Shown piece after piece: positions 42,827-61,856 of a DNA stretch of 64,000 bases; position 1 is the first letter of the stretch, and every line of letters begins with the position of its first letter. The notes under the pieces are model-generated. The model was not told where the DNA came from, made no database searches, and saw nothing but the letters and a program-made list of their open reading frames with translations. Source of the DNA: Escherichia coli (lineage in GTDB: Bacteria > Pseudomonadota > Gammaproteobacteria > Enterobacterales > Enterobacteriaceae); NCBI RefSeq assembly GCF_013315695.1, contig NZ_CP054353.1. One strand, given 5' to 3'. The translations under genes were made by a program, and so were the position numbers.

Positions 42827-43684
42827 GTGAAAGCTGACAACCCTTTTGATCTTTTACTTCCTGCAGCAATGGCCAAAGTGGCCGAAGAGGCAGGTGTCTA
42901 TAAAGCAACGAAACATCCGCTTAAGACTTTCTATCTGGCGATTACCGCCGGTGTTTTCATCTCAATCGCATTCGTCTTCTATATCACAGCAACCACTGGC
43001 ACAGGAACAATGCCCTTCGGCATGGCAAAACTGGTTGGCGGCATTTGCTTCTCTCTGGGGCTGATTCTTTGTGTTGTCTGCGGAGCCGATCTCTTTACTT
43101 CCACAGTGTTGATTGTTGTTGCTAAGGCGAGTGGGCGCATCACCTGGGGTCAGTTGGCGAAAAACTGGCTAAATGTTTATTTTGGCAACCTAGTCGGCGC
43201 ACTGCTGTTTGTACTTTTAATGTGGCTTTCCGGCGAGTATATGACCGCAAATGGTCAATGGGGACTAAACGTCCTACAAACCGCCGACCACAAAGTGCAC
43301 CATACTTTTATTGAGGCCGTCTGTCTTGGTATCCTGGCAAACCTGATGGTATGTCTGGCAGTATGGATGAGTTATTCTGGCCGCAGCCTGATGGACAAAG
43401 CGTTCATTATGGTGCTGCCGGTCGCGATGTTTGTTGCCAGCGGTTTTGAGCACAGTATCGCAAACATGTTTATGATCCCGATGGGTATTGTAATCCGCGA
43501 CTTCGCATCTCCGGAATTCTGGACCGCTGTCGGTTCTGCACCGGAAAATTTTTCTCACCTGACCGTGATGAATTTCATCACTGATAACCTGATTCCGGTT
43601 ACGATCGGTAATATTATCGGCGGTGGTTTGTTGGTTGGGTTGACATACTGGGTCATTTACCTGCGTGAAAACGATCACCATTAA
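42827..43684 (+). CDS. focA: formate channel FocA (FNT family)
   Basis: 285-aa ORF from GTG 42827 (MKADNPFDLLLPAAMAKVAEEAGVYKATKHP...) preceded by AAAGAGAGAG RBS; in frame with the longer track ORF. Confidence 0.93.
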   Translation: MKADNPFDLLLPAAMAKVAEEAGVYKATKHPLKTFYLAITAGVFISIAFVFYITATTGTGTMPFGMAKLVGGICFSLGLILCVVCGADLFTSTVLIVVAKASGRITWGQLAKNWLNVYFGNLVGALLFVLLMWLSGEYMTANGQWGLNVLQTADHKVHHTFIEAVCLGILANLMVCLAVWMSYSGRSLMDKAFIMVLPVAMFVASGFEHSIANMFMIPMGIVIRDFASPEFWTAVGSAPENFSHLTVMNFITDNLIPVTIGNIIGGGLLVGLTYWVIYLRENDHH

Positions 43685-43738
43685 TGGTTGTCGAAGTACG
43701 CAGTAAATAAAAAATCCACTTAAGAAGGTAGGTGTTAC

Positions 43739-46021
43739 ATGTCCGAGCTTAATGAAAAGTTAGCCACAGCCTGGGAAGGTTTTACCAAAGGTGACTGGCA
43801 GAATGAAGTAAACGTCCGTGACTTCATTCAGAAAAACTACACTCCGTACGAGGGTGACGAGTCCTTCCTGGCTGGCGCTACTGAAGCGACCACCACCCTG
43901 TGGGACAAAGTAATGGAAGGCGTTAAACTGGAAAACCGCACTCACGCGCCAGTTGACTTTGACACCGCTGTTGCTTCCACCATCACCTCTCACGACGCTG
44001 GTTACATCAACAAGCAGCTTGAGAAAATCGTTGGTCTGCAGACTGAAGCTCCGCTGAAACGTGCTCTTATCCCGTTCGGTGGTATCAAAATGATCGAAGG
44101 TTCCTGCAAAGCGTACAACCGCGAACTGGACCCGATGATCAAAAAAATCTTCACTGAATACCGTAAAACTCACAACCAGGGCGTGTTCGACGTTTACACT
44201 CCGGACATCCTGCGTTGCCGTAAATCCGGTGTTCTGACCGGTCTGCCAGATGCTTATGGCCGTGGTCGTATCATCGGTGACTACCGTCGCGTTGCGCTGT
44301 ACGGTATCGACTACCTGATGAAAGACAAACTTGCACAGTTCACCTCTCTGCAGGCTGATCTGGAAAACGGCGTAAACCTGGAACAGACTATCCGTCTGCG
44401 CGAAGAAATCGCTGAACAGCACCGCGCTCTGGGTCAGATGAAAGAAATGGCTGCGAAATACGGCTACGACATCTCTGGTCCGGCTACCAACGCTCAGGAA
44501 GCTATCCAGTGGACTTACTTCGGCTACCTGGCTGCTGTTAAGTCTCAGAACGGTGCTGCAATGTCCTTCGGTCGTACCTCCACCTTCCTGGATGTGTACA
44601 TCGAACGTGACCTGAAAGCTGGCAAGATCACCGAACAAGAAGCGCAGGAAATGGTTGACCACCTGGTCATGAAACTGCGTATGGTTCGCTTCCTGCGTAC
44701 TCCGGAATACGATGAACTGTTCTCTGGCGACCCGATCTGGGCAACCGAATCTATCGGTGGTATGGGCCTCGACGGTCGTACCCTGGTTACCAAAAACAGC
44801 TTCCGTTTCCTGAACACCCTGTACACCATGGGTCCGTCTCCGGAACCGAACATGACCATTCTGTGGTCTGAAAAACTGCCGCTGAACTTCAAGAAATTCG
44901 CCGCTAAAGTGTCCATCGACACCTCTTCTCTGCAGTATGAGAACGATGACCTGATGCGTCCGGACTTCAACAACGATGACTACGCTATCGCTTGCTGCGT
45001 AAGCCCGATGATCGTTGGTAAACAAATGCAGTTCTTCGGTGCGCGTGCAAACCTGGCGAAAACCATGCTGTACGCAATCAACGGCGGCGTTGACGAAAAA
45101 CTGAAAATGCAGGTTGGTCCGAAGTCTGAGCCGATCAAAGGCGATCTCCTGAACTACGATGAAGTGATGGAGCGCATGGATCACTTCATGGACTGGCTGG
45201 CTAAACAGTACATCACTGCACTGAACATCATCCACTACATGCACGACAAGTACAGCTACGAAGCCTCTCTGATGGCGCTGCACGACCGTGACGTTATCCG
45301 CACCATGGCGTGTGGTATCGCTGGTCTGTCCGTTGCTGCTGACTCCCTGTCTGCAATCAAATATGCGAAAGTTAAACCGATTCGTGACGAAGACGGTCTG
45401 GCTATCGACTTCGAAATCGAAGGCGAATACCCGCAGTTTGGTAACAACGATCCGCGTGTAGATGACCTGGCTGTTGACCTGGTAGAACGTTTCATGAAGA
45501 AAATTCAGAAACTGCACACCTACCGTGACGCTATCCCGACTCAGTCTGTTCTGACCATCACTTCTAACGTTGTGTATGGTAAGAAAACTGGTAACACCCC
45601 AGACGGTCGTCGTGCTGGCGCGCCGTTCGGACCAGGTGCTAACCCGATGCACGGTCGTGACCAGAAAGGTGCAGTAGCCTCTCTGACTTCCGTTGCTAAA
45701 CTGCCGTTTGCTTACGCTAAAGATGGTATCTCCTACACCTTCTCTATCGTTCCGAACGCACTGGGTAAAGACGACGAAGTTCGTAAGACCAACCTGGCTG
45801 GTCTGATGGATGGTTACTTCCACCACGAAGCATCCATCGAAGGTGGTCAGCACCTGAACGTTAACGTGATGAACCGTGAAATGCTGCTCGACGCGATGGA
45901 AAACCCGGAAAAATATCCGCAGCTGACCATCCGTGTATCTGGCTATGCAGTACGTTTCAACTCGCTGACTAAAGAACAGCAGCAGGACGTTATTACTCGT
46001 ACCTTCACTCAATCTATGTAA
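43739..46021 (+). CDS. pflB: pyruvate formate-lyase (formate C-acetyltransferase)
   Basis: 760-aa ORF with the C-terminal glycyl-radical motif RVSGYAV and active-site cysteines (IACCVSPM). Confidence 0.98.
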
Positions 46022-46063
46022 TTAGATTTGACTGAAATCGTACAGTAAAAAGCGTACAATAAA

Positions 46064-46089
46064 GGCTCCACGAAAGTGGGGCCTTTTTT
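46064..46089 (+). terminator. rho-independent terminator of pflB
   Basis: Imperfect hairpin GGCTCCAC-GAAA-GTGGGGCC followed by TTTTTT. Confidence 0.6.
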
Positions 46090-46212
46090 AGCACGAGAGC
46101 CTTTTTTGTCAGCTATCTATACTTTAAGGTGACTGCCAAAACAGACTCGACGTAGCCTTCGAGCTGCGCACCAACACGGCCTCAGATGGGCCACATCTGG
46201 AGAAACACCGCA

Positions 46213-46953
46213 ATGTCAGTTATTGGTCGCATTCACTCCTTTGAATCCTGTGGAACCGTAGACGGCCCGGGTATTCGCTTTATCACCTTTTTCCAGGGCT
46301 GCCTGATGCGCTGCCTGTATTGTCATAACCGCGACACCTGGGATACGCATGGCGGTAAAGAAGTTACCGTTGAAGATTTGATGAAGGAAGTGGTGACCTA
46401 TCGCCACTTTATGAACGCTTCCGGCGGCGGCGTTACCGCATCCGGCGGTGAGGCAATCCTACAAGCTGAGTTTGTTCGTGACTGGTTCCGCGCCTGCAAA
46501 AAAGAAGGCATTCATACCTGTCTGGACACCAACGGTTTTGTTCGTCGTTACGATCCGGTGATTGATGAACTGCTGGAAGTAACCGACCTGGTAATGCTCG
46601 ATCTCAAACAGATGAACGACGAGATCCACCAAAATCTGGTTGGAGTTTCAAACCACCGCACGCTGGAGTTCGCCAAATATCTGGCGAACAAAAATGTGAA
46701 GGTGTGGATCCGCTACGTTGTTGTGCCAGGCTGGTCTGACGATGACGATTCAGCGCATCGCCTCGGTGAATTTACCCGTGATATGGGCAACGTTGAGAAA
46801 ATCGAGCTTCTCCCCTACCACGAACTGGGCAAACACAAATGGGTGGCGATGGGCGAAGAGTACAAGCTCGACGGTGTAAAACCACCGAAAAAAGAGACGA
46901 TGGAGCGAGTAAAAGGCATTCTTGAACAATATGGTCATAAAGTGATGTTTTAG
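46213..46953 (+). CDS. pflA: pyruvate formate-lyase activating enzyme (radical SAM)
   Basis: 246-aa ORF from ATG 46213 ([23 protein letters not shown]...) with the radical-SAM cluster motif [10 protein letters not shown]. Confidence 0.96.
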
Positions 46954-47019
46954 AACATCATTGCAGGTTGAATGTCGACCTGTAATTTTGGCTCCTTCCC
47001 CCTTCTTTTAGTTAGAATA

Positions 47020-47059
47020 AATAAATCAGCGTTGAGTGTATGCTCGACGCTGATTTATT
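47020..47059. terminator. 13-bp-stem hairpin between convergent pflA and bcsC-like gene
   Basis: AATAAATCAGCGT...ACGCTGATTTATT perfect inverted repeat with a 14-nt loop; the only strong structure in the 146-bp convergent gap. Confidence 0.5.
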
Positions 47060-47099
47060 GAGCTTAATTTTCGTACTGTAACTTTCCGATGCTACGTTA

Positions 47100-50000
47100 C
47101 TACCCGTCGGCGTAAGGTATCAGCGGCTGTGGCGGTAAATCCATATCGCCCTGCCATCCGGCGGCGGAATACCGTACATAGAGCTGGAAGTGACTTGGCG
47201 CATAATCCTTCGCTTTCTGGATATCAATCGCCGTACCAACAAACCAGTTGGACGTGACGCGACGTTCAAGTAATGCCCGTGCCGTGTAACCAAAACCCTG
47301 ACTGCTGCTACCACTGTTGGATTGTTGTGCTGCTTCTTCCTGCCAGTCGCTCGGGATCAGGTTCATCAGCGGATAACGCGGCATGGTTTTGGTCCGTGAG
47401 TGCGACCATGAACCTGAAGCCCCCAGCTCCCACGACCAGTTTTCCGTCCGCTCGCGCCACATCACCGGCACCGCAAACGACAGGTATTCCTGCGGGCTGT
47501 AGTAACCGCCCTGACCCAGTGAGTACTCACTCAGGTCTTTGTCGTAATGCCAGATCATGTTGTTCAGGCCAATGGTAACGCGGCGGTTATTCTCGTTGAT
47601 AATTTTATAGTAATAGCCCGTCATCCAGCGCACGCGCCAGTTATCTTCGACATTTTTACCGGTTAACTGATCACCGCTAAGCGATGCCCAGACGCCGTTT
47701 GCTTCACCTTTATCGTAACTCAGACTTAGCCCCACGCCGTCGGCACGCACGCCGCCCCATTTTTTCCCGGTGTTGCCCGGAGAATCTTTCTGCCCGCCGA
47801 AGGCCAGCATTGAGCTGGAGACAGGCCGACGATGTGCGTCAACGGTATAGCCGAGTGGGCCGATACTGTCGCTGTAACTGACAGCGCCGACCACATCCAC
47901 CACGTTGAATCCCATCGGTGTGGTGCCAATATCCCAGCTCCAGGTGTCGTTGCGCCAGCCAACCGCCACGCTTGTGCCGGAGTCTGACTGACTGCGGTTG
48001 CCGCTACACTCCTGCAGCGTACAGGTTCCCCAGTTATCATCCCATTTGCCATCGGCATTAGTGGAGAAACTGCCGACGTTCATATTGACGAAATCACTGC
48101 GAAAGAACATCCGACCGTCAGAATACGGCGCATCCACCTGCAACATGGTGGTATGTGCTTTCAGGTCAGAATAGCCGCCAGTGCCGTTTGATCCCCAGTA
48201 GTCGTGCTCCAGGGTGACATTGAGATCCTGCTGACGATAAAGATCTGCCGCATCGCTGCGCACGCCACGTTTCAGCCAGTCATCCTGCTCATCATTACGG
48301 GTAAGGCGGGTAAAGGTGTCGTTATCCTGCGGACGTGTCGTCGTCACGCCGGAAGCGATCATCGCATCTTTGTAGGTTTCCAGCGCCTGTTGCGGTTCAC
48401 CCGCCTGCGCCTCAAATTTTGCGCCATCGCGCAGTACCATCGCGCTTTCCATCGACGGCGGCTGAGATTTTGCCTGCAGGATCAGCCTGTTAAATGTCTG
48501 CTGTGCCGCTGCGGTATCGCCAAGCTGTGCCTGCACCAACGCCACGCGCCGCTGAGTGTTCAGCGAGGCGTTATCGGTGGCGGGAAGTTTCGCCAGTTGA
48601 CTGCGCGCCGCGGCTTTGTCGCCTGCGGCAATATCCACTTCCGTCAGGCCAAGAATGGCATCGGCGTTATTCGACTCCCGCGCCAGCACATTCTGATACG
48701 CCGTGCGGGCGGCGGTGTAATCGCGTCGCTGTTGTGCCCAGTCAGCCAGCGTAAGATCAATGCGCGTGGAAGGCGGTTGCTGGCGTAGCATCGCCTCCGC
48801 ATCCTGTTCTTTGCCACTGTCACGCAGGCGATTAGCCGTTTCCAGAATCTGATCGCTTTGCAGGCGATTCACCAGTTCCTGAATGTTGCCGTTCCACCGG
48901 GCGCGCGGCAGATTGTTAATATGCGCCAGCGCCGCCCGCTCCTGATCGTGACCGGAGAGATACAGTCCGTAAGCGTAAACCTGGTCCGGGTCGTTCGGCT
49001 TCTGTTGCGCCAGGTTACGCATTAACGTATCAGCCTGGGTACGTTGTCCGGCCTGCCAGAGATCCTGCGAAAGCCGGTAAGTTACCCACACACTGCCGGG
49101 GTCCAGCGCCAGTCGTTGCCGCTGAAGTGCTGCCGCCTGCGCCCATTTACCCTGATTTTCCAGCGCCTCCGCCTGCTGCGATAAGCGATCGTTTTGCAGA
49201 CTGCGTTCGATATCATCAATACTGCGCCGCTGGCTGGCAGAAAGTGACGCAATAAACGCTTCAGCTTTTTCCGGCGATTGCTGCCGATAAATGTTCGCCA
49301 GTCCACGCACGGCGTTAGTGTTGCCGCTGTCCATACGCAGGGTCTGCTGATAATAACGTTCGGCGGCGGGGTAATCTTTTCGCGCCATTGCCACATCACC
49401 CAGCCCCAGCACCGCATAGCTGTCGGTGTTATCGACATTGCGTGCCTGCAGGAACAGGCGTTCCGCCTGATCAGGATTGTTCGCTTTCAGTGCGGCATCG
49501 CCCTGTTGGATCGCCAGCCAATAACGGTTCACTTTCAGCAAACTGTTCCATTTGTCGTTGTTGCTGCTGTGCGGGCCCAGCGCGAGGGCTTTTTCCAGAT
49601 TTGCCACCGCATTCGCGCGATCGCCTTTCTGTGAATAAGCCTGGCCCAGCGCCCCCAATATTGCACCAGAGTTTGGGTTATCAATATTAAGTTTTTTCAA
49701 CTGACTAATTGCCTCGTTGCGACGAGATGCAATTTGCGCCACTGCACTCCAGTATTCCAACGCCATGCCGACATCTGACGGTACTCCGTTAAATAGCTTG
49801 TCATAACTGACAATAGCCTCCTCGTATCGCCCGGAGATAGCTTGTAAACGCGCCATTTGCAATGCCTGGCGCCCCTCAAGCGAAGAAAGTCGCATGACCG
49901 TACGCGATGCTTTATATATTTTTGAATCTGGGGCGATCAGAGAAAGTCTGGCAAGTTGTTTGTGTGCTCCGTCAATATCCCCCTTGCGAAGCAGATAGCG

Positions 50001-50207
50001 AAACCGAGCCGCAACGACATCAGGATTATTGGGCTCCACCAATTCAAGGCGATAAAGCGACTGCTCCACCAGTTCTTCACGGTGAGAGTCTTCTCCCAAT
50101 CGAATCTGTGCCATCAGCAGTTGATAAGCAGTTGGCGTGGCTTTTGCCATCGACATTACCGCCAAACCAAGAGATATGGTGAGTAAATTTAGGGTGAATT
50201 TGTGCAT
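47100..50207 (-). CDS. BcsC-like outer-membrane exopolysaccharide export protein (N-terminal TPR region + C-terminal beta-barrel)
   Basis: About 1035-aa ORF (ATG at 50207; track start 50219 is TTG) with signal peptide MHKFTLNLLTISLGLAVMSMAKA, multiple TPR-like repeats, and a C-terminal region rich in alternating aromatic/Gly beta-strands typical of BcsC barrels. Last gene of the co-oriented cluster. Confidence 0.8.
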   Translation of the reverse strand: MHKFTLNLLTISLGLAVMSMAKATPTAYQLLMAQIRLGEDSHREELVEQSLYRLELVEPNNPDVVAARFRYLLRKGDIDGAHKQLARLSLIAPDSKIYKASRTVMRLSSLEGRQALQMARLQAISGRYEEAIVSYDKLFNGVPSDVGMALEYWSAVAQIASRRNEAISQLKKLNIDNPNSGAILGALGQAYSQKGDRANAVANLEKALALGPHSSNNDKWNSLLKVNRYWLAIQQGDAALKANNPDQAERLFLQARNVDNTDSYAVLGLGDVAMARKDYPAAERYYQQTLRMDSGNTNAVRGLANIYRQQSPEKAEAFIASLSASQRRSIDDIERSLQNDRLSQQAEALENQGKWAQAAALQRQRLALDPGSVWVTYRLSQDLWQAGQRTQADTLMRNLAQQKPNDPDQVYAYGLYLSGHDQERAALAHINNLPRARWNGNIQELVNRLQSDQILETANRLRDSGKEQDAEAMLRQQPPSTRIDLTLADWAQQRRDYTAARTAYQNVLARESNNADAILGLTEVDIAAGDKAAARSQLAKLPATDNASLNTQRRVALVQAQLGDTAAAQQTFNRLILQAKSQPPSMESAMVLRDGAKFEAQAGEPQQALETYKDAMIASGVTTTRPQDNDTFTRLTRNDEQDDWLKRGVRSDAADLYRQQDLNVTLEHDYWGSNGTGGYSDLKAHTTMLQVDAPYSDGRMFFRSDFVNMNVGSFSTNADGKWDDNWGTCTLQECSGNRSQSDSGTSVAVGWRNDTWSWDIGTTPMGFNVVDVVGAVSYSDSIGPLGYTVDAHRRPVSSSMLAFGGQKDSPGNTGKKWGGVRADGVGLSLSYDKGEANGVWASLSGDQLTGKNVEDNWRVRWMTGYYYKIINENNRRVTIGLNNMIWHYDKDLSEYSLGQGGYYSPQEYLSFAVPVMWRERTENWSWELGASGSWSHSRTKTMPRYPLMNLIPSDWQEEAAQQSNSGSSSQGFGYTARALLERRVTSNWFVGTAIDIQKAKDYAPSHFQLYVRYSAAGWQGDMDLPPQPLIPYADG

Positions 50208-51968
50208 ACCTGGACTCAATCAGGTGTTAACTCACTTTTTATTAAAAAATGAATAAGCGCAGTTCCCTGCCCTGCCTGTTTAAGGCCAGAGCAGAGAGCT
50301 ACAAAGATGAATTACTGTTGATGAGGATTCAGACGACGATGGCTAATGATGCGTAGCAGACGCCAGACGACCCACGCCAGAAGCACCACACTCAGCATTG
50401 CCATTCCTGCCAGCAAAACAGGATGTTTCGCTAACATATATTGCGCGCGCTCAATCCAGGGAAGATGCCCCACATAATAGGTATCTCCAACCCGTAAACT
50501 ATCGACACCTGATTCACGAATAACCGCAACTGAGCCAAATATATTGCCACGTTTTGCACTATTAATTAGCGCATTATTAAGTAACTCGTCACCACGTGCC
50601 CCCTCGGTCATTAATGCAATTACGCTACGTTGGGGATGATATGGAGACTGGAAACCAACCACCGCGGCCATTGGCGATGGAGAGATCATGCTTGTTTGTG
50701 TTTCAGTTTTTTGGTTGTTTTCATCTGTCATAATTTGTGCGTTATCAGAGTGCCGCATTGGCGTTTTTACCCAACTAGCGGTTGCATCAATGAGCAGATT
50801 AATTTGCTGCTGACCTGCAAATTCTTGCGGAATTGCCCCTATCAGCAGGATGTCTGCATCCTTATTCTGGATGGAGCTTATATCATCAGTAACTGTCAGA
50901 TTAATTGCCGGAAATCCGGTTTGAGCACCAATCAATCCAAGGGTATTTAGCAATATTTCAACCTGCGTTGTACCAGGATGTTCAGGCATAACGATGACTG
51001 TTTCAGATAAATCGGCCATACGGCTAAAAGGAAAGCCTGAACTAGCAAAGGCGCGTAAATCTGGCATGGCGATAAAGTGATGATACTTTGAAAAATCGAT
51101 AGTAGAATCATCAGCAATAACTGCATGGTTATTCAGAGGCCGGGAAATAATACAACTCCCGTCATCAGTACTCGGTATCGTATTAACGTACTCAAAATTG
51201 AATCGTAATTGATTAAGTGCCCCCAATGTCAGCGCCGGAATGGTAATTTTATTATTGCTATCTGACAATTCTTGCAATAACGGTAAATGTAATAGCAGTC
51301 GATCAGTAGTCGAGCGCGGGCTTGGGCGAAAAGATTCAATGTACTGATTATTAAGATTAACATCAATACGAGAACCGCCTACCATTGGCGTGGTATAGCG
51401 ATAGTTAATCTTCATATCAACCCCACTATTACGTAACAGAAAGAGATCAGGCGGCAAATTGAATGAAACATTAATTGCTGCGATCTGCAGGGCACTTGCC
51501 TGTAACTGTCCTTCATAGTTTTTAAGCTCTGCGAAAGTTACAGGACGATCAGTGCGAACCCAGTTTGGCGCATCATAAGGTTTGCGTGGCAGCAGTGGTT
51601 TCACGTCATTTACAACCACACTATCGCCGCGAAACAGTATATTTCCCTGAGCGAGACCTTTTGCTGCCTGTAATAAATCTTTGTCATCGCGGCCCCAAAT
51701 TACCAACAATTTGACGAAAGGATTTTGTGGATGGTTAATCATCTTAATAACAGGTGCATTCACCAACGGATGATCACGCAAAAAGTCTGGCCGTCTATTG
51801 TTAGTGGCAAAGACTATAGCATTGCTTTCCGGTAACTGATTATAAAAAACTGGAAATTGATGACCACGCCACCCCGATTGCGAACCAAACCACGAAGCGA
51901 CAATTGCAGATGCTTGCTGCAAACCAGCCTCCGGTGGGCCAGCAAAAACCATCGGCAATGTATTAGTA

Positions 51969-51977
51969 CGGTTATCT
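51969..51977. repeat. 9-bp IS1 target-site duplication, left copy (CGGTTATCT)
   Basis: Identical 9-mer at 52746-52754 flanks the other end of IS1. Confidence 0.9.
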
Positions 51978-52032
51978 GGTGATGCTGCCAACTTACTGAT
52001 TTAGTGTATGATGGTGTTTTTGAGGTGCTCCA

Positions 52033-52308
52033 GTGGCTTCTGTTTCTATCAGCTGTCCCTCCTGTTCAGCTACTGACGGGGTGGTGCGTAACGGCAAAAG
52101 CACCGCCGGACATCAGCGCTATCTCTGCTCTCACTGCCGTAAAACATGGCAACTGCAGTTCACTTACACCGCTTCTCAACCCGGTACGCACCAGAAAATC
52201 ATTGATATGGCCATGAATGGCGTTGGATGCCGGGCAACAGCCCGCATTATGGGCGTTGGCCTCAACACGATTTTACGTCACTTAAAAAACTCAGGCCGCA
52301 GTCGGTAA
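52033..52308 (+). CDS. insA: IS1 InsA (transposition inhibitor / N-terminal part of InsAB' transposase)
   Basis: 91-aa [45 protein letters not shown]... matching IS1 InsA. Confidence 0.95.
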
Positions 52309-52730
52309 CCTCGCGCATACAGCCGGGCAGTGACGTCATCGTCTGCGCGGAAATGGACGAACAGTGGGGCTATGTCGGGGCTAAATCGCGCCAGCGCTGG
52401 CTGTTTTACGCGTATGACAGGCTCCGGAAGACGGTTGTTGCGCACGTATTCGGTGAACGCACTATGGCGACGCTGGGGCGTCTTATGAGCCTGCTGTCAC
52501 CCTTTGACGTGGTGATATGGATGACGGATGGCTGGCCGCTGTATGAATCCCGCCTGAAGGGAAAGCTGCACGTAATCAGCAAGCGATATACGCAGCGAAT
52601 TGAGCGGCATAACCTGAATCTGAGGCAGCACCTGGCACGGCTGGGACGGAAGTCGCTGTCGTTCTCAAAATCGGTGGAGCTGCATGACAAAGTCATCGGG
52701 CATTATCTGAACATAAAACACTATCAATAA
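52227..52730 (+). CDS. insB: IS1 InsB frame (expressed as InsAB' via -1 frameshift)
   Basis: 167-aa ORF in the -1 frame relative to insA, matching IS1 InsB. Confidence 0.9.
52282..52290 (+). promoter_or_regulatory. IS1 programmed -1 ribosomal frameshift site (TTAAAAAAC)
   Basis: The A6C slippery motif lies in the insA/insB overlap, where the IS1 frameshift site is known to be. Confidence 0.7.
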
Positions 52731-52745
52731 GTTGGAGTCATTACC

Positions 52746-52754
52746 CGGTTATCT
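52746..52754. repeat. 9-bp IS1 target-site duplication, right copy (CGGTTATCT)
   Basis: Exact repeat of 51969-51977. Confidence 0.9.
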
Positions 52755-53455
52755 CGCGGATCAAAGAATGGCACAGGAAAATATGAAAGATCATTTTGCA
52801 GATTGAGTTTCTGGACGACCAGACCAAGTTCACTGTTACGTCCAATATCAAGCCACAAGTTATTGCTGGTTGAGATTTCACAGCTATTCTGATAATGGCC
52901 AATTAATTCAAAACGCAAACGATTAAAATCCGAGAAATACAATGGGTTAAGCGTTATTTCCGCCAACGTTTTTTTTCCCAGTTGTTCTTTGGTAATCGGT
53001 AATACTCCCATCAACTCATCATTAAGATAAACTTTAAGCTGCGACTGAACGGGGATCAATGACGGTGACGGAGTATATTCAAGCTTTAGTTTTGCATCTG
53101 AAACTATCTCATCACTGCGCATACCAAATTCAATATACCCCAGTGGGTTGACACCATTCAAAACGATGTTACCAGGCGCTGGTGATATTTGTGTAAATGG
53201 AAGTTTAAAATGATAAGAGGAATCTTTCGCATAAACAGAGACGTTAGACTTCTCTATAGCGGGTAATACTATCCCGGAGGGAGACTTATGGATTATGGTA
53301 TCTAAAGCTGATGCAGCATTTGCCTGGTATAACCATAAAAACCCTAAGCAAATTATTGCAGTAATAAATTTTAAATATTTTCTTTCCATTTTAAAAATTT
53401 CAAGAGACATAATCAACACAAATAATATATTTAGTTGGTTAAATATAATCTAAAA

Positions 53456-55570
53456 CTAATTCTCACGACTATTTTTTAGTGTCCGCAGAATATAAAAAAT
53501 CATATTGTAATACCCTTTAAGAGAGATGATACATACGTCAAAAAAGCTCTTTAGTATATTATCTTGCTTAATTTTATCATTCCACTCTTGCCATAATGAA
53601 TCACGTGAAAATGTTACTCTGACATAATTAATATTCTGTTCATAAGTCATTGGCAAAATCTTCAGACCAATTTTATTTTTGTAAGCATGAACAACTTTTA
53701 CAGGAATATCACATTCCCCTTTATTATCACTCAGATAAAGAGACAAATGCTGAGTTTTTTCGATTTCTTTTACATCGGAGATGTGATCAACAATAACCCC
53801 CAGGCCACCTTCGGAGAAATCAATAACAGAACAGGGATAGCACCGTCCATCTGCTAGTTTTATCACACCTTTAAAAGAAACATCTATCCGAGGAGAAAAG
53901 CGGACCTGCTTTTGTTCAATAGAGACTGCCAGGGTTGCGCCAATAATAATTGTATTATAAATCAACCAAATCAAACAAAATAAATTTAATATAACAAGAT
54001 GACCTTGCAATCTATAAATATTAATAACACCTATTATTAGTCCAATTAAATTTAAAATAGCAAAAATAAGATAAGGATATGAGATTCGCCAGTCAACAAA
54101 TTTATTTTTTATTAACCCGCCCTTGGCAGTAACGTTAAATCGCCCTTTAGCTGGCGCAAGTAAGGCAACAAGCGTTGGTAGTGTAATATACCAGGCCAGA
54201 ACCATTTCATAAATTTCATTCCAAAATGAATGTCTGTATTCACCCTGAACTCTTGAGTTAGTAAAAATAATCACAAATAGATAAGGTAGAACATAAGACA
54301 TAATATCTGCAACCGACGCATCTATCAAATTAACTGAAAAGAAAATAGGACATAGTGGCGCGAATAAAAAAATCAGCCGTGGAACCCCTGATAAAAAATG
54401 CATCATGCTACTGAGATAGCAAAGACGCTGTGATAACGTCAGCCCTTTGCCCAATAATGGATTATCAATACGTAAGATTTGGATCATGCCCCTGGCCCAC
54501 CGTATTCGTTGTCCGATATGAGCAGACAATGTTTCGGTAGCAAGTCCAGCGGCCAGAGGATAGCGAAGATATGCGGAGCTGTACCCTGCACGATGCAAGC
54601 GTAGCGATGTATGCGCATCTTCCGTTACCGTTTCAACTGCAATGCCTCCAACCTCATCTAATGCAGACCTACGGATAACCGCGCATGAACCACAAAAAAA
54701 TGAAGCATTCCATGTATCGGTGCCATTCTGGATTAAACCATAAAAAAGATGTCCTTCATTTGGTTTCTGCCGAAATTGCCCCAAGTTTCGCTCAAAAGGA
54801 TCGGGAGAGAAAAAATGATGTGGTGTTTGCAGCATCGATAGTTTTTTATCGGCAATAAACCAGCCCATCGTTTTTTTTAAAAAAGAAACGGAAGGAATAT
54901 GATCACAATCGAAAATAGCAACAAATTCGCCGTTAGCTATTTTAAGCGCATTGTTTATATTTCCAGCTTTCGCATGTTCATGCGTTTCTCTTGCAACATA
55001 GCAAATACCTGACTCATCAGCAAATTTCCTGAATTCGTCTCTGGCACCATCATCAAGAAGCCAGACATGTAATTTATCTTTTGGCCAGTCTAAAGCCAGC
55101 GCTCCATAAACTGTATTCTTCACGACAGTAAAGGGTTCATTATATGTAGGTATGAATATATCGACATCAGGCCATTCTTCTTTATTATCTGGTAAAGGTA
55201 TGCTTTCCCTGTTCAATGGGAAACAGACCTGAAAATAACCAAGTAATAAAACAAACCATGCATACGTTTCAGCAGCTAACAGCGTCAATGAAAAGAAGCT
55301 GTCAGGAAACTCATCAAGAATAACTGAAGAAGAGTAACGCCACCATAGATACCTTGTGGATATAAGTATACCAATACCCATTAAGATCAGGGTAATCATC
55401 CTTCCCCTGAGCAAATTGAGGAGAAAAACAGAGATACAAATGATAATCGAGAATAGTGTTTGTTGATAAAAACCGAGCGGCTGTTCAACAATTGACAAAA
55501 AAACAAAACATAGCAATATAGCAACAAAAAGAAAAATTTTGTTGTATATTTCTTTATTTTTTAAATTCAT
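53456..55570 (-). CDS. BcsA-like processive family-2 glycosyltransferase with C-terminal PilZ (c-di-GMP-binding) domain
   Basis: 704-aa ORF with eight or more predicted TM helices, GT2 motifs (LLDDGARDEF, FDCDH, TVTEDAHT, QRIRWARG, FFCGSCAV) and PilZ motifs (RFSPR = RxxxR; DFSEGG = DxSxxG). About 35% GC. Confidence 0.88.
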   Translation of the reverse strand: MNLKNKEIYNKIFLFVAILLCFVFLSIVEQPLGFYQQTLFSIIICISVFLLNLLRGRMITLILMGIGILISTRYLWWRYSSSVILDEFPDSFFSLTLLAAETYAWFVLLLGYFQVCFPLNRESIPLPDNKEEWPDVDIFIPTYNEPFTVVKNTVYGALALDWPKDKLHVWLLDDGARDEFRKFADESGICYVARETHEHAKAGNINNALKIANGEFVAIFDCDHIPSVSFLKKTMGWFIADKKLSMLQTPHHFFSPDPFERNLGQFRQKPNEGHLFYGLIQNGTDTWNASFFCGSCAVIRRSALDEVGGIAVETVTEDAHTSLRLHRAGYSSAYLRYPLAAGLATETLSAHIGQRIRWARGMIQILRIDNPLLGKGLTLSQRLCYLSSMMHFLSGVPRLIFLFAPLCPIFFSVNLIDASVADIMSYVLPYLFVIIFTNSRVQGEYRHSFWNEIYEMVLAWYITLPTLVALLAPAKGRFNVTAKGGLIKNKFVDWRISYPYLIFAILNLIGLIIGVINIYRLQGHLVILNLFCLIWLIYNTIIIGATLAVSIEQKQVRFSPRIDVSFKGVIKLADGRCYPCSVIDFSEGGLGVIVDHISDVKEIEKTQHLSLYLSDNKGECDIPVKVVHAYKNKIGLKILPMTYEQNINYVRVTFSRDSLWQEWNDKIKQDNILKSFFDVCIISLKGYYNMIFYILRTLKNSREN

Positions 55571-55643
55571 GGTACGTAACTATTCATTAATACTATGATT
55601 TGACTTTAAAAAAACGAATGAATGATGTCATAAAAATAAAATT

Positions 55644-56984
55644 TTAACACCAGGTTACCTGTGCTCTTCCATTTTGCTTACTTTTGTATAATCGTTCATC
55701 TGCCAGTAATTTCAACCGTTCAATGTTATTCATGCACTCGTCAGTATTGGCAACACCAATACTGCAACTACAATTCAATCCACCTATTGAGAAATGGACT
55801 ATTCTGTGCAAAATTCTTGATAATTGATTTATATCTTTATCATGATAAATAATAGCGAACTCATCGCCACCAAATCGATAAACTTCACCTTTGCTGAGGG
55901 GTAATTCATCCTTAATAAGATTAACAAGTCTTATTAGTACTTCATCACCAAATAAATGACCAAACTTGTCATTAATGGTTTTAAACTTATCTACATCAAA
56001 CAGGCATAAATATCCAAAATCCTTACTCAGCATCCTGATATTTTTATCAAAAACACGACACCCAGAAGCTCGCGTCAATGCATCGTAAGTCCCGGAATCA
56101 TATATTTCTCTAATTGCATCAATCTCTTCAACGTTAAAGAATAGATTTTTTCCATGCAAATTATAATGATTATTCGATAATATAGATTCTTTTTCTGACT
56201 TACCCTTATTTATGATTTTTTGCATTAATTTAATGTAATGAAAATATATTAACCCCGCAGAAATCGCCGATGTGAAAACAAAAAACAAGCACATATAAAT
56301 ATACTTATCTTTTTTATAGGCAACAATAAACATTACTTCCGGGATATAAGAATAAGCAAGAGTGATCGCTGATTTCTCAAATACAGCATCATTAATCAAA
56401 AAATCATCACCCGCGATTTTCTTTTCATTATCATTGATATCATAAAATGAGACATATATATTTTCCCGTTCACCTGACTGATTTCTTATCAAAGCCAAAT
56501 AACGTTCAGGATCTACCACTGATATCAAACTTGTTCGTTTCGAAATAGGATGAGCATAATAAATATAATATTTATTATTTAAACTAATAATCCCTCTTTC
56601 AAAGATGTTACTTATACGGATAGAAGAAACTATGCCGTCACAAAAGTTATCCCCTTCCGTTGTAACTTTGGCGCATTTACCATCGCTAATGATATAGGGA
56701 CCTAGATCATAAATATATTCTGGTTTTTGAAAGTCAGCAAAACTATTGCGTATCCTTTTTAACAACTCTTCCGGAGAAATATCTAACCCATAAAATACAT
56801 TATTAAATACTAAGCGCCGATACTCAGACACATTAGCTATAGCAAGCCCACTATCTATGATCGATACCTTTACCGAATTGACTCGATCTTTAACGTAAAT
56901 AGTATACAGATAACATGTCATTACAGAGACACATAAAAAATACAAAAAACAGATCCCTGCTGCCTTTTTTTTATACTTAAACAT
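55644..56984 (-). CDS. membrane-anchored diguanylate cyclase (two TM helices flanking a periplasmic domain + GGDEF domain); DgcI/YliF-like by architecture
   Basis: 446-aa ORF with GGDEF-domain motifs DALT, FDVDKFKTINDKFGH, RFGGDEFAII and ADERLYKSKQNGR; no RxxD I-site five residues upstream of GGDEF. About 30% GC. Confidence 0.85.
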   Translation of the reverse strand: MFKYKKKAAGICFLYFLCVSVMTCYLYTIYVKDRVNSVKVSIIDSGLAIANVSEYRRLVFNNVFYGLDISPEELLKRIRNSFADFQKPEYIYDLGPYIISDGKCAKVTTEGDNFCDGIVSSIRISNIFERGIISLNNKYYIYYAHPISKRTSLISVVDPERYLALIRNQSGERENIYVSFYDINDNEKKIAGDDFLINDAVFEKSAITLAYSYIPEVMFIVAYKKDKYIYMCLFFVFTSAISAGLIYFHYIKLMQKIINKGKSEKESILSNNHYNLHGKNLFFNVEEIDAIREIYDSGTYDALTRASGCRVFDKNIRMLSKDFGYLCLFDVDKFKTINDKFGHLFGDEVLIRLVNLIKDELPLSKGEVYRFGGDEFAIIYHDKDINQLSRILHRIVHFSIGGLNCSCSIGVANTDECMNNIERLKLLADERLYKSKQNGRAQVTWC

Positions 56985-56988
56985 TGTG

Positions 56989-59337
56989 TTATTTTCTTTT
57001 TTTCGGTTTACTGTCTATATGCCACTCTGAAAACGGTAATGGTTTCTGGTATAAATATCCCTGAACATGGGAGAAGCCTAATTTTTGTAATTCTCTGGCC
57101 TGTCTTTCTGTTTCAACACCTTCAGCGATCACTGGCATATTTTCTTCTCGTGCAAGACTAGATATAAAACACACAACCCTGTTAGTTTCATCGAAAATAC
57201 CAGAAGTAAATTCTGAATCAATTTTGATGCTATCAGGTCTAACTTTGTATAATTTTTTCAAGTCAGCTAACCCACTGCCAAAATCATCAAGGGAAATTTT
57301 AATGCCATTTCTTCTTAAAAATTTTATATTATTATAAAAACTATCATTTATATCTTTCATTGCTGACTCGGTGATCTCCAGACAGATTTGTTCCGTATTT
57401 ACGCCAAATTTATTAATTAAATTCAAAACGCGGGTATGGAAATCAAATTCATTTAACTGCCAAGGTGAAACATTGATATGCAGAAGAAATTCTTTCGTAA
57501 TTTCATACTCACGACTAAATGAACCAAATTCACCAATAGCCGTTTCAAGAACAAAATCACCCAGTTCTTTAATTAAGCCAATTTCTTCAGCAACAGGCAC
57601 GAAAACTGATGGTGGTATTGCACCATTTTCAACGGACAACCAGCGGCATAACGCTTCGGCGCCAACAACATTATTACTATCCATATCAACAATCGGTTGA
57701 TATACTAAATAAAACTCACTACTCACAATTGCTTTTTTTATATTTCCAGCAACCCAAACCTTTTGATCAAGTTCATGAGCCTTAATATCATCATAAAATA
57801 TAAATTCAGATTCTTTATTTTCTCGCATAGCTGTTAATGCCAGTTTCAGTTTACCTTCATAAATCGACAAACTTTCCCCTGAAAAAGTTTCACAAATAGC
57901 AACCTTATGAACATAAATATTTCTTATGCAAAAAATATGCTCAGGAAAGTTTAAAACAGATAATCGTTCTATGAACTCTTCACAATGAGTGTGACACAGC
58001 AACAAATATGTTTCAGTAGAAATTTTTATAATATCACAATATTTAGAATACTTTGCTGATATCTTTGATTTTATATCATTAATGATCTCATAAAATTTCT
58101 GACTGCCATGTATAGCCTCTACAAACTCTAATCCATAGATACAAAGCATACCAACTGCTGAATAGGTTTTATTATTAGTTTCAATGACAGATTTGTTGAT
58201 ATAGAAACAACTTCCTTGTTCATAGGAAACAAGATTAAGTAACCGTTCCATCCGCTCTTTGTATTTGTCACTAATGTTATTAATGATTTTTTTGAGCTCA
58301 ATAATCTCACTACTGTCATTTTGCACGATTTCGATTTTATCATTTCGGTATACTGAGCTCGCTAATTTTTTCAGATGCTCAATTAGTTTACCAGAGTCGT
58401 TTCTAACCTTTTTTGTTATCTTTTCAAAAAGGTACCATAATAAACAGAAACAAACCAAACCACATACAAACATCAGTGTAAAATATTTATTTATGTTTGT
58501 GTCTTCTGCTTTTTGATAATGAAAATAATGAAATTTGACATCAGGAAGCCTGGGGAGTGAAATAATATCGTCCGTATAATTACCGTTATTATTACTTATG
58601 TTATAACGTCCAGATGCATCTCTAACAATAAGATGTAACATTGATTGTTCATTACCTACCATAATCCTTTTATTCTGTTCCATAAATAAAATATCTGCAT
58701 TTCCTCCTAATTTGTCCAGGAAATTGCTAAAATATCTTTCATCAAGATCTAAATGAATTAACTTCAGAGCAAATGAATCTTTTTCTGCTTCGGCTGGTCG
58801 TAATGAAAACGAAAAACATTTTTTCCCGGCAATGCCATAGCAGTTATACCATGGTGACCATTTTGAATAAGTCCCTGTTGGTAATTTATTCCAGGGACGG
58901 GATTCAGGATCAAAGTAGTTATCGTTAATTTCACCATCAGGGCTAGTAAAAGCATGACCTGGCTCTGATTGCCCCAAAAATTTAACATCACCATTATCAG
59001 TTCGAATAAAGCTAAGATACTTTCCATTATTTAGCATTATTCCGACTAAATTAACAGAATCTATCTTTTTCATCCGATGAAGAACTGCGCGTTTTATTTC
59101 ATTTTCATCGTGTAACAGATAAATGGCATCTTTTAAAGCATCCGCCTCTTTTTCAACTTTAGAAAAAAAGTTATTCAAATTATTATTGATAAGTATAAGA
59201 TTAATGCGTGAAGAGTTTTCTGCTATTTTTTTATAAAAATCAATGGCTGTAATAAATGATAAAATAATATAGACAGTGACAGCGAATATAAGCGCAGTGT
59301 TAAATCTTGAGTTTAATTTTTCTGTGATGCTATACAT
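56989..59337 (-). CDS. membrane-anchored c-di-GMP phosphodiesterase (periplasmic sensor domain + cytoplasmic linker + EAL domain); PdeI/YliE-like by architecture
   Basis: 782-aa ORF; EAL-domain catalytic motifs are intact (EALCRW, NVSPWQ, EITES, DDFGSGL, KIDSEF, EGVETE, GYLYQKP). Its stop is 4 bp from the dgc start. Confidence 0.85.
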   Translation of the reverse strand: MYSITEKLNSRFNTALIFAVTVYIILSFITAIDFYKKIAENSSRINLILINNNLNNFFSKVEKEADALKDAIYLLHDENEIKRAVLHRMKKIDSVNLVGIMLNNGKYLSFIRTDNGDVKFLGQSEPGHAFTSPDGEINDNYFDPESRPWNKLPTGTYSKWSPWYNCYGIAGKKCFSFSLRPAEAEKDSFALKLIHLDLDERYFSNFLDKLGGNADILFMEQNKRIMVGNEQSMLHLIVRDASGRYNISNNNGNYTDDIISLPRLPDVKFHYFHYQKAEDTNINKYFTLMFVCGLVCFCLLWYLFEKITKKVRNDSGKLIEHLKKLASSVYRNDKIEIVQNDSSEIIELKKIINNISDKYKERMERLLNLVSYEQGSCFYINKSVIETNNKTYSAVGMLCIYGLEFVEAIHGSQKFYEIINDIKSKISAKYSKYCDIIKISTETYLLLCHTHCEEFIERLSVLNFPEHIFCIRNIYVHKVAICETFSGESLSIYEGKLKLALTAMRENKESEFIFYDDIKAHELDQKVWVAGNIKKAIVSSEFYLVYQPIVDMDSNNVVGAEALCRWLSVENGAIPPSVFVPVAEEIGLIKELGDFVLETAIGEFGSFSREYEITKEFLLHINVSPWQLNEFDFHTRVLNLINKFGVNTEQICLEITESAMKDINDSFYNNIKFLRRNGIKISLDDFGSGLADLKKLYKVRPDSIKIDSEFTSGIFDETNRVVCFISSLAREENMPVIAEGVETERQARELQKLGFSHVQGYLYQKPLPFSEWHIDSKPKKRK

Positions 59338-60436
59338 ACTGGTGTTCTGACTAAAATGTTATCAATAATTTCGATATTACATTATATAAAGTTCGGTATA
59401 TGAAATGGTATTAATACTCCTCTTTATGATTTTCTGAATTAAATGATCTCCATTCTGTAAATATATCATAATGAGAAGATTGATTTTCTCTTAATTTACC
59501 AAAGTTATTATCATGCTTATTACTTTAACCAGAATGACATTATCATATATAGCGTTTATACTTTTGCATCTTCCACCCACGCTACCGCCTTTCGTTAATT
59601 TATCAACGAAATAATTTAGATATGAAAAAATCAATATATGACGCCTAAGCTATCACATTATGCATAGTTGCGACATTCACCTCTTTAATTATCCCAAAGA
59701 GGTATTAATGTGAATTCTCTATCATCCATTTTGCTGATTTATCTTTTTTCAGTCATGAGCAATCCGACTCTCTTAGCCAAAATAAATTAATAACCTTAAA
59801 ATGAGGTTTAATCAGAAAGTAGTAGCCACAGCTTGACTATTAAGACTATAAATTAGCCATAACGATGGACAGATAAATATGTTAATGAATACATGTTCAA
59901 TAAAACAATAAGGCACAACGCCAGGCCACCATTTTATTTTAAAAATAAAAGGCTGTGAACTATGCCAGGTATAATCTGATTCTATCGAGAGAGAATTTTT
60001 GTAAGTTACAAATACTGCAAAAGACACATTACACAAAATTTTTAACCACACAAACACCTTGTGTTCTGTATAACAGAACAATAGCTGTGGTCATTTTCAG
60101 CAAGTTTAACTAAAATTATCAAGAATTTTTTTTGATGTATATCAAAAACAATAGTCTTCGCGCATCCGTTACTGCTTAACATTTACCCACAAAGTTCATA
60201 TTTTCACCACACATAATCGTTCACTTCAGAACTTAAAATAATAACTTGCAAAATAACCAATAATTAAAACTATCACTGCATCTAAAAATAAAGATTAAGA
60301 TAACTAAAATTCGTATTATCACGGCATCGTTTATCGCCACCCGTCTCTTAAGAAAAATTTAACTTTGCTATTATCAGTCCTCTCCGAATTTCTCTTCTAT
60401 TTACTGCGATAACCCCGGCGAACCGGGGCATGATGA

Positions 60437-61856
60437 CTATTTCTTATTCGCTTTACGCGCAAGTAACGGGAATATCAGCCCCAGTCCAACCAGGACAAAT
60501 GGCGTCGCAATATTCAGCGCCAACTGAAAAGTCCACTCTGCGGTGAAGGCTTCCATTTTCGGGAAAATCCCTGTCAGGCAGGCAAAAGCGGTAAAGGTAA
60601 AACACCAGATCCCGACAGTCATCGCCAGCGGCCTGTTACGAATAAAGACATACTCTGGTTTATATTTCTGCGCCAGGCGAACGACTGCAATAAATGCAAC
60701 AAATACCCATAAATAACGCAGCGGCATCACTACCGAATTAAGGTTCAACAGCCATTTATAGAGATTGTTCATATCACCAATGCCGAGAGTCGGCAGCATA
60801 ATCAGAATCGCCACCAGTACCAGGGTCAGAAAATAGCCATTAACGGGCGTACCAGAAGCGTTGGTACGACATAAACTGGCTGGAATATATTTGCTATCAG
60901 CATCGCCTAATAGTACTTTAAGCGGCGCATCAATCGAGAATACCAGCGCAGCTACTTGTCCCAGGGTATTCGCAATGGCGTAAATCACCATTAAAGTATT
61001 ACCCATGTTGTAATACTCGCCCAGCTTCTGAAAGGCGTAATACTGACCGTTGGTCATTAAGTCATCCGGGATATTACGCGAATCAAACATCATCCCCATC
61101 GCCAGCGAGCCCAGAATGGCACAAACCGCAACCATCACCGCCAGGCATAACATCCCTTTTGGAAATTCTTTTCCTGGGTTGCGCGTTTGATTAACGTAAG
61201 GAGAAATCTTCTCTGCTCCGCCAACCGCGAAAACCAGCATTGAAATAGTGGTAATGTAGGTAAAGTCGATATGAGGAATGAACGTTTCCCAGGTAATGTT
61301 TGTGGTCGCAATATGCACTTCAGTAATTGCAGGCGCGGTTACCGCCATCGCCACATACAGGAGCGACATAACAAACATCGCAATCCCTGCCACAGAACCG
61401 ACGATTTTCAGCGATTTCATACCGCGTGAAGCAACCCACATAAAGAAGATAAACAGCACCAGCGTTAACCCCTGTAACGCTACGACTGAATATTCTTTGA
61501 TTAACGAACCGTCGCCTTTCATCGCCCAACCGAGCGCAATCAGTATTGCCTGGGGTTTTTGTGCCAGATAGGGAATATGCACTACCCAGTAGGTCCACGC
61601 GGCGAGGTAAGCCAGTCCGGGTCCCATCGTGTGTTTAATCCAGGTACTGACCCCGCCCTTCCCATCTTTGAAGGTCGAGCCTAACTGACCAACAATTAGC
61701 GCATAAGGTGTGAAATAGAGCGCAAAGATAAACACCCATGAAAAACCCCTGGTTGGCGTAGTTATTAACAACGTTGCCAAAACCCCAGACAGTGATAAAA
61801 GACATCAGCGCAATGTTGTACCATCGCAGCTGTTTTTCCTGAACATTCCCAGCCAT
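60437..61856 (-). pseudogene. ycaM: APC-family amino acid/polyamine transporter gene with a frameshift near the 5' end
   Basis: The N-terminal 37 codons (MAGNVQEKQLRWYNIALMSFITVWGFGNVVNNYANQG, from ATG 61856) are in one frame and the remaining 447-codon ORF (from 61780) in another; the frames switch at an A5/T5 homopolymer at 61741-61745. Confidence 0.7.

Follow-up and report, generated by a model that had tools for sequence, protein, structure and literature searches.

Accessory bcsABC clusters that are accompanied by adjacent YliF-like and YliE-like c-di-GMP genes have recently been described as bcs2 and bcs3 (Hosseinpourlamardi et al., bioRxiv 10.1101/2025.05.09.653004). Loss of function of the canonical bcs genes has been reported to be convergent and virulence-enhancing, with 27 independent mutations recorded in ST95 and mutations present in 74 of the 76 common sequence types (Nhu et al., 2024; PMC10881479). 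At the level of the enzyme, BcsA cannot polymerise without the C-terminal tail of BcsB (Omadjela et al., 2013, cited after PMC8892547).

The locus that we report on here is contained in a contiguous 64-kb stretch of Escherichia coli DNA (hereafter the window, to which all coordinates refer unless stated otherwise) and resembles the bcs2/bcs3 clusters in its overall design. It comprises bcsABC only and occupies a non-canonical chromosomal site, it is adjoined by genes for a YliF-like GGDEF and a YliE-like EAL protein, and its BcsA is shorter than BcsA1 at both ends, missing an N-terminal extension of some 150 amino acids and a C-terminal one, the 704-residue protein aligning to profile positions 148–836 of 872. 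Its identity to BcsA1 (363 identical positions of 872 aa, about 42%) falls within the 41–43% given in the preprint, a value that fits either BcsA2, with the reference WP_074014783.1, or BcsA3, with the reference HDP8224287.1. The accessory BcsA shares only 73% identity with a BcsA encoded on E. coli plasmids, presumably BcsA2. At so low a value, we rejected the notion that the cluster in the window is the plasmid-borne bcsA2 one; it probably represents the chromosome-only 'bcs3' type.

An earlier note on this DNA, made from its letters and reading frames, had proposed that a copy of IS1 splits the bcsB gene of this cluster. Here, we compare the locus with its IS1-free relatives, consider what the insertion would do to the synthase and to the expression of bcsC, and weigh the circumstances under which it may have arisen.

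Results

The interrupted gene belongs to a rare accessory cellulose locus

On the plus strand, the order of genes is ycaO, focA, pflB and pflA; it is followed, on the minus strand, by bcsC, the 3' fragment of bcsB, the IS1 site, the 5' fragment of bcsB, bcsA and the GGDEF and EAL genes, and then by ycaM and ycaD (Table 1). In comparison with K-12, positions 46953–60437 stand in place of a 1.68-kb ycaK-ycaN segment, with homology to K-12 stopping at the stop codon of pflA and restarting at that of ycaM. Apart from bcsB, the genes for BcsA, BcsC and the GGDEF and EAL proteins are all open in the window. BcsA carries the motifs DDG, DCD, TED, FFCGS and QRIRW, together with the PilZ motifs RFSPR and DFSEGG. 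The accessory BcsC is chimeric: its residues 165–1034 are 92.9% identical to the canonical E. coli BcsC, as compared with 60% for residues 1–206.

Table 1. Coordinates of the accessory cellulose locus and of the IS1 element within it
Feature	Position	Strand	Remarks
Accessory bcsC, 1035 aa	47100–50207	-	Downstream of the insertion; candidate for expression loss through polarity
3' fragment of accessory bcsB	50312–51977	-	About codons 213–766 plus stop; remaining periplasmic domains and C-terminal membrane anchor
Left 9-bp target-site duplication, CGGTTATCT	51969–51977		Read from the sequence and located by script
Complete IS1 (IS1A family), 768 bp	51978–52745	+	IRL 51978–52000; IRR 52723–52745
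IS1 transposase InsAB'	52033–52730	+	CDS coordinates transferred from the annotation of near-identical genomes, where it is not a pseudogene
5' fragment of accessory bcsB	52724–53389	-	Native residues 1–215 plus 6 IS1-encoded residues; partial pseudogene in the annotation of relatives
Right 9-bp target-site duplication, CGGTTATCT	52746–52754		Read from the sequence and located by script
Accessory bcsA, 704 aa	53456–55570	-	Intact in the window
GGDEF gene	55644–56984	-	GGDEF motif present
EAL gene	56989–59337	-	EAL motif present

Among 5,426 complete E. coli genomes, we found the accessory locus in nine, where it always occupies this site and exists in three or more sequence variants. Two of these complete assemblies, MSB1_4I (from a rectal swab, Australia) and AF3 (from a blood culture, UK), carry the IS1 insertion as well, and over 22 kb the window and MSB1_4I differ by 2 SNPs. 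MSB1_4I has its canonical bcs locus elsewhere, at 216–231 kb of its record; the disrupted module is an accessory second cellulose locus and not the main one.

A complete IS1 is flanked by a perfect target-site duplication

The earlier note had described a complete 768-bp IS1 bracketed by a perfect 9-bp repeat, and we could verify its positions, its ends, insA and insB', and the copies of CGGTTATCT on both sides. The element begins with GGTGATGCTGCC and ends with GTCATTACC, and its termini form imperfect 23-bp inverted repeats (GGTGATGCTGCCAACTTACTGAT and GGTAATGACTCCAACTTATTGAT) that match in 18 of 23 positions. Upon translation, insA (52033–52308) is open over 91 aa, a slippery A6C motif (AAAAAAC, 52284–52290) suited to a -1 frameshift is present, and the insB' frame stays open to 52730. 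The element thus displays the hallmarks of IS1: a length of about 768 bp with GGTRATG-type repeats of about 23 bp, the insA-A6C-insB' arrangement, a 9-bp duplication and high identity to reference copies. Identity to IS1 copies in other E. coli genomes ranges from 97.5 to 99.7% among the matches listed, and 768/768 positions agree with the IS1 copy that MSB1_4I bears in its canonical bcs locus. In MSB1_4I and AF3, where the element is identical, PGAP lists its transposase as intact under the name 'IS1-like element IS1A family transposase, programmed frameshift'. The transposase is encoded antisense to bcsB.

The script found no second IS1 copy within the 64-kb window. One further occurrence of CGGTTATCT exists in it, at position 140, and two given sites would agree in 9/9 letters by chance with a probability of about 4e-6.

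The two bcsB fragments are halves of one gene

When positions 51978–52754, that is IS1 and one copy of the repeat, are deleted in silico, a minus-strand frame of 2331 nt results that encompasses 777 codons including the stop and contains no internal stops. The uninterrupted 777-codon frame reported in the earlier note was hence reproduced by script, as was its freedom from additional stop codons or frameshifts. The 777 codons are counted from the earliest in-frame start codon that follows the upstream stop. Annotations of IS1-free genomes place the beginning of the CDS 10 codons later, at an ATG at 53389 (MERKYLKF...), which gives a protein of 766 aa.

The NCBIfam profile for BcsB (NF008325, 766 positions) is matched by the 5' fragment at positions 3–216 (257.5 bits) and by the 3' fragment at positions 211–765 (886.1 bits), so that each fragment singly stays below the cut-off of 922 bits and both together span the whole profile. 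The reconstructed BcsB is 99% identical to a cluster of 766-aa proteins with 241 member sequences bearing PF03170; its identity is 82–84% to two further Escherichia clusters and 64% to the canonical E. coli BcsB. All 120 matches listed contain a full-length BcsB, mostly as single proteins of 731–808 aa along with a few longer fusion or extended forms; homologues in which the halves are naturally separate genes did not occur among them. With abutting profile coordinates and intact 766-aa alleles in IS1-free genomes, the two pieces are to be viewed as the halves of a single gene.

Residues 33–764 of the reconstructed protein align to the solved E. coli BcsB chains 9fmt, 6yg8 and 7l2z. In this alignment, the insertion point falls within the conserved block FFDPRDNR/TNTLPMVFAG (the slash marking the site), and the C-terminal anchor (…HPILLAVLAAISVILLAWVLWRLLRIIS) aligns gap-free. 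This anchor is encoded by the 3' fragment only, which has neither a signal peptide nor a native start codon.

The empty site and the age of the insertion

The locus also exists, at 99.7–99.8% identity, in E. coli genomes free of the IS1, where the 9-mer occurs once and BcsB is intact. A complete BcsB of 766 aa is encoded in MS 21-1, E7-1N7, N3 and 06-00048. The alignment with IS1-free homologues that the earlier note had recommended was made with MS 21-1. It starts in ycaO (41000) and reaches into the spacer between the EAL gene and ycaM (reconstructed coordinates 41000–59355, the end corresponding to about 60132 in the window); over these approximately 18.3 kb, the reconstructed window and MS 21-1 match without a gap and with 18 substitutions (about 0.1%). 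Given this ungapped colinearity, the empty site holds a single CGGTTATCT, and no other sequence has gone missing. The same junctions occur in two independent complete assemblies, which excludes an assembly artefact. PGAP annotates two partial bcsB pseudogenes flanking an IS1A-family transposase in both MSB1_4I and AF3; the IS1-disrupted allele is already recorded as a pseudogene in two RefSeq genomes.

The perfect duplication, the 768/768 identity of the IS1 with another copy and a divergence of about 0.1% from the nearest empty allele mark the event as recent, in agreement with the simple recent insertion postulated earlier. As judged from these sequence features, the lesion is a genuine, fairly recent and simple IS1 transposition into bcsB.

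Predicted consequences for BcsB and the synthase

By translation, the 5' reading frame of bcsB now runs through ...FFDPRDNR (R215) into VMTPTY and a stop codon at 52724–52726 in the right end of IS1. IS1 entered by simple insertion at codons 213–215 of bcsB, with duplication of its 9-bp target CGGTTATCT. Translation of bcsB now ceases 22 nt inside IS1 and yields a 221-residue product consisting of the signal peptide and roughly the first periplasmic domain. The remaining 551 residues, among them the C-terminal amphipathic helix and the membrane anchor that pack against BcsA, would no longer be exportable, and the synthase would be rendered non-functional. Since BcsB would thereby lose the anchor that BcsA needs, a loss of function of the accessory synthase is very likely. 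We infer from the sequence, as had the earlier note, that bcsB was presumably functional before and that the whole module has probably been inactivated.

Predicted polarity on bcsC

In the classical work on gal and lac, IS1 is polar in both orientations. About 2.4 kb of untranslated RNA now lies ahead of bcsC, as transcripts of bcsB would have to cross the 768 nt of IS1 and approximately 1.7 kb of untranslated RNA from the 3' part of bcsB (bcsB'). Rho-dependent termination in this untranslated stretch would then probably reduce the expression of bcsC as well, and the polar effect on bcsC is plausible.

A stable stem-loop at about 50259–50303, directly after the bcsB stop codon and followed by a U-rich tract, attains a z-score of -3.7, and its pairing is seemingly kept, despite base changes, in variants of about 84% identity, as judged by eye in a four-sequence alignment. 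Should it act as an efficient terminator, bcsC would be independent of read-through from bcsB and the argument for polarity would be moot. A scan of positions 49900–53600 found no promoter-like site in the 104-bp gap between bcsB and bcsC. Over the whole scanned region, it returned 3 terminator-like sites vs 3.3 expected in shuffles, and 15 promoter-like sites vs 8.8 +/- 2.5 in shuffles, a modest excess. The inward promoter region known from the IRL of IS1 was recovered by the scan too. A promoter-like match of 10/12 at 51866–51839, a consensus match only, is located on the strand of bcsB a short way downstream of IS1; it might conceivably drive transcription of bcsB' and bcsC.

Repeated decay of the accessory locus

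Three independent events have broken bcsB in five of the nine complete genomes: the IS1 insertion in MSB1_4I and AF3, a Q22* mutation in AF14 and AF10, and an IS3-family element near codon 565 in GF43. The remaining cluster genes have suffered further lesions, with W450* in bcsA of AF3 and a 1-bp deletion in the EAL gene of AF14 and AF10, and bcsA of MSB1_4I carries the substitution I638N. All genes of the cluster are intact in four genomes.

On the IS1 lineage and its tips, the non-synonymous changes are T377I and L430P in BcsB, L234F in the GGDEF protein, I638N and W450* in BcsA, and H35Y in the EAL protein, next to two synonymous substitutions in the cluster. This pattern is compatible with relaxed constraint, the numbers being too small for a test. 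L430P alters a leucine shared with E. coli BcsB, and every carrier of L430P also has the IS1; because of the conserved position, BcsB may possibly have been impaired before the insertion. The presumably later W450* (AF3) and I638N (MSB1_4I) changes in bcsA are consistent with a dead module.

A second IS1-associated lesion in the canonical bcs locus

An identical IS1, in this case devoid of a flanking duplication, is found in the canonical bcs locus of MSB1_4I and AF3 beside a 637-bp deletion that takes the 5' end of bcsE, the divergent intergenic promoter region and most of bcsR. That the same clone carries an identical IS1 in its main cellulose locus is mildly notable. This junction occurs only in MSB1_4I and AF3 and is absent from their sister MS 21-1, where bcsE-bcsR is intact and a stop in bcsG is the sole lesion of the canonical locus. 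IS1-matching places number at least 40 in MSB1_4I/AF3 vs a median of 11.

The window strain, MSB1_4I and AF3 would accordingly form a small IS1-rich clone that has inherited the insertion in the accessory bcsB and has lost the canonical bcs promoter region too. As both loci are hit, the clone is probably cellulose-negative overall, a statement that for the canonical locus derives from the near-identical genomes (2 SNPs in 22 kb) and not from the window strain.

Discussion

The data lend themselves to a coherent interpretation: IS1 transposed recently into the accessory bcsB, the accessory synthase lost its function, bcsC was probably affected by polarity, and the clone probably became cellulose-negative. 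We assign this joint reading a probability of roughly 0.85. That the bcsB pieces are naturally separate genes, or that an assembler misplaced the IS1, has practically no chance of being true and was rejected. The mere presence of two open reading frames might suggest it, but the empty-site alleles are one gene, the profile coordinates abut, the homologues are full-length, and the same junctions with their perfect 9-bp duplication recur in two assemblies from different continents. A residual function of the truncated module is very improbable. It would require that the 559-codon frame starting from a TTG at 51991 in the left end of IS1 gives rise to an anchor that still activates BcsA. This frame (50312–51991) is indeed open, the promoter-like 10/12 match described above might serve it, and the BcsB tail that it encodes is the very part needed for catalysis in vitro (PMC8892547). 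However, its product would have no signal peptide, and its periplasmic domains would therefore stay cytoplasmic; the promoter-like matches, 15 vs 8.8 +/- 2.5, are consensus-based; and the nonsense mutation in bcsA of AF3 is what one expects of a dead module.

The preferred reading of an insertion into a working gene has to be set against two further views on how the lesion came about. It is unlikely that the module was already dead or silent, with IS1 being a neutral arrival in a decaying locus of a genome in which IS1 was expanding. The threefold independent breakage of bcsB in five of nine genomes and the 1-bp deletion in the EAL gene of AF14/AF10 would be in keeping with it, as would the lineage-specific T377I and L430P changes in BcsB, the latter at a shared leucine, and the presence of at least 39 other IS1-matching places in the strain. 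Yet, bcsA, bcsC and the GGDEF and EAL genes of the window strain are open with their catalytic motifs intact, and four genomes retain every gene of the cluster. Rather doubtful, too, is the proposition that the accessory insertion and the IS1-associated deletion in the canonical locus were positively selected, total loss of cellulose being beneficial as in virulent extra-intestinal E. coli. Both cellulose loci of MSB1_4I and AF3 are lesioned by the identical IS1, AF3 stems from a blood culture, and convergent, virulence-enhancing bcs losses are documented (PMC10881479). Against this, with at least 40 IS1 places spread over about 5.3 Mb of genome, two such hits may be coincidental, MSB1_4I was recovered from a rectal swab, and the IS1-free sister MS 21-1 has the bcsG stop only in its canonical locus. 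Only tentatively, therefore, would we entertain the wider idea that an expansion of IS1 disabled both loci and that selection against cellulose extends to second bcs clusters which were horizontally acquired, are functional when intact and are lost convergently.

Taken on its own, the event is an ordinary IS1 pseudogenisation of a rare accessory bcsB and of little importance. It bears on whether the accessory bcs clusters described in E. coli work and are retained, given that bcsB is broken in five of the nine complete genomes, and on the convergent loss of cellulose in pathogenic lineages, as the same IS1 lesions both loci in two genomes. In biofilm or cellulose phenotyping of carrier strains, a negative result is to be expected from both loci.

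In mechanistic terms, the insertion does not differ from the gene-disrupting insertions of textbook IS1 elements (IS1A/IS1R family), with which it shares its length, its repeats, insA, the A6C motif, insB' and the 9-bp duplication; the sole uncommon point is the gene that was hit. The comparison with the described accessory clusters reveals more substantial differences. The preprint predicts functional synthases, whereas bcsB is broken here, as in the majority of the complete genomes discussed above. Moreover, the preprint finds that BcsC clusters concordantly with BcsA; in the present locus, in contrast, BcsC is 92.9% identical to canonical BcsC over its C-terminal 870 residues. The text of the preprint (bioRxiv 10.1101/2025.05.09.653004) contains no mention of IS1, pflA or ycaM and uses the term 'pseudogene' for Shigella genes and BcsE4 only. 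Insertion sequences and bcsB are likewise not mentioned in the study on the canonical genes (PMC10881479). With the findings of that study, the present clone shares the repeated and independent loss of cellulose genes, its canonical locus being damaged as well. The screen of PMC10881479 addressed truncating mutations in canonical genes only, whereas here it is a paralogous, accessory locus that has been hit, by IS1.

Results and Discussion

The accessory bcs locus, an EAL gene-GGDEF gene-bcsA-bcsB-bcsC cluster, has been disabled independently in other E. coli genomes. AF14 and AF10 (loci L004 and L007) carry a Q22* nonsense mutation in bcsB together with an EAL gene split by a 1-bp deletion, GF43 (L006) carries an IS3-family insertion in bcsB near codon 565, and AF3 (L003), which shares the IS1 of bcsB with the window, has the bcsA mutation W450*.

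In MSB1_4I, the near-identical genome, and in AF3, the canonical bcs locus is likewise occupied by an IS1, matching the window IS1 at 768/768 positions. This copy is without a flanking duplication and adjoins a 637-bp deletion, through which the 5' end of bcsE has been lost along with the promoter region between bcsE and bcsR and the greater part of bcsR. No such lesion is present at this locus in MS 21-1, a sister strain whose bcsG contains an internal stop. When complete E. coli genomes were searched with a query composed of bcsE', IS1, bcsR' and bcsQ, 58 of them had a matching site that spanned 80% or more of it; among the matches listed, an annotated IS1 lies between bcsE and bcsQ in all 23 other genomes (examples in the table), the bcsE-bcsQ spans of which mostly fit simple insertions. 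This pattern suggests that the AT-rich divergent promoter region between bcsE and bcsR holds an IS1 hotspot.

T28R, which belongs to this set, is cited as a carrier of a chromosomal bcsA2 cluster (Hosseinpourlamardi et al., 2025; bioRxiv 10.1101/2025.05.09.653004).

Coordinates of the features discussed (L011 and L003, handles of the MSB1_4I and AF3 stretches)
Feature	Sequence and position	Strand	Remarks
Canonical bcs locus, MSB1_4I	NZ_LR898874.1 216298-230621 (L011 26298-40621)		
IS1 in canonical bcs locus, MSB1_4I	L011 29491-30258		
IS1 between bcsE and bcsQ, examples	NZ_CP049353.1 (T28R), NZ_CP047571.1, NZ_LR890508.1		
Accessory bcsC	window 47100-50207		compared with 50312-59337
Stem-loop region, bcsB stop to bcsC start	window 50230-50303	minus	
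ycaM	window 60438-61856	minus	frameshift at about 61707-61744
P2-like prophage, AF3	NZ_OZ547117.1, L003 1-5125		integrase, Cox, repB, replication endonuclease

Next to the accessory cluster, ycaM of the window is frameshifted, as the tblastn match of K-12 YcaM falls into two frames. The lesion, with a ycaM length of 1420 nt in the matching genomes versus 1431 nt, is common to the window, MSB1_4I, AF3, AF14 and AF10, and is absent from MS 21-1 and E7-1N7. A further difference inside the IS1-bearing clone is found directly upstream of pflA, where AF3 harbors a P2-like prophage, whereas the window and MSB1_4I have pflB-focA.

Between bcsB and bcsC, a stable stem-loop of about 19 bp is predicted (MFE -38.5 kcal/mol over a 123-nt region; z = -3.7); downstream of it lie a U-rich tract and a second hairpin (A/U). 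Judged by eye from a four-sequence alignment, the pairing of the stem-loop is apparently kept in the N3 and 06-00048 variants despite their differing sequence. This element could serve as an attenuator, a terminator or an RNA-stabilizing structure.

The accessory cluster is a mosaic in both composition and phylogeny. GC3 climbs along the operon from 0.25 (EAL gene) through 0.28 (GGDEF gene), 0.31 (bcsA) and 0.37 (bcsB) to 0.61 in bcsC. Residues 165-1034 of the accessory BcsC are 92.9% identical to canonical E. coli BcsC (88.4% DNA identity over 2557 nt for the same part), in contrast to 60% for the BcsC N-terminus, 64% for BcsB and 53% for BcsA. Taken together, the GC3 gradient and this contrast in identity suggest that the 3' part of bcsC was swapped by past recombination for canonical-type sequence from an Escherichia-like donor.
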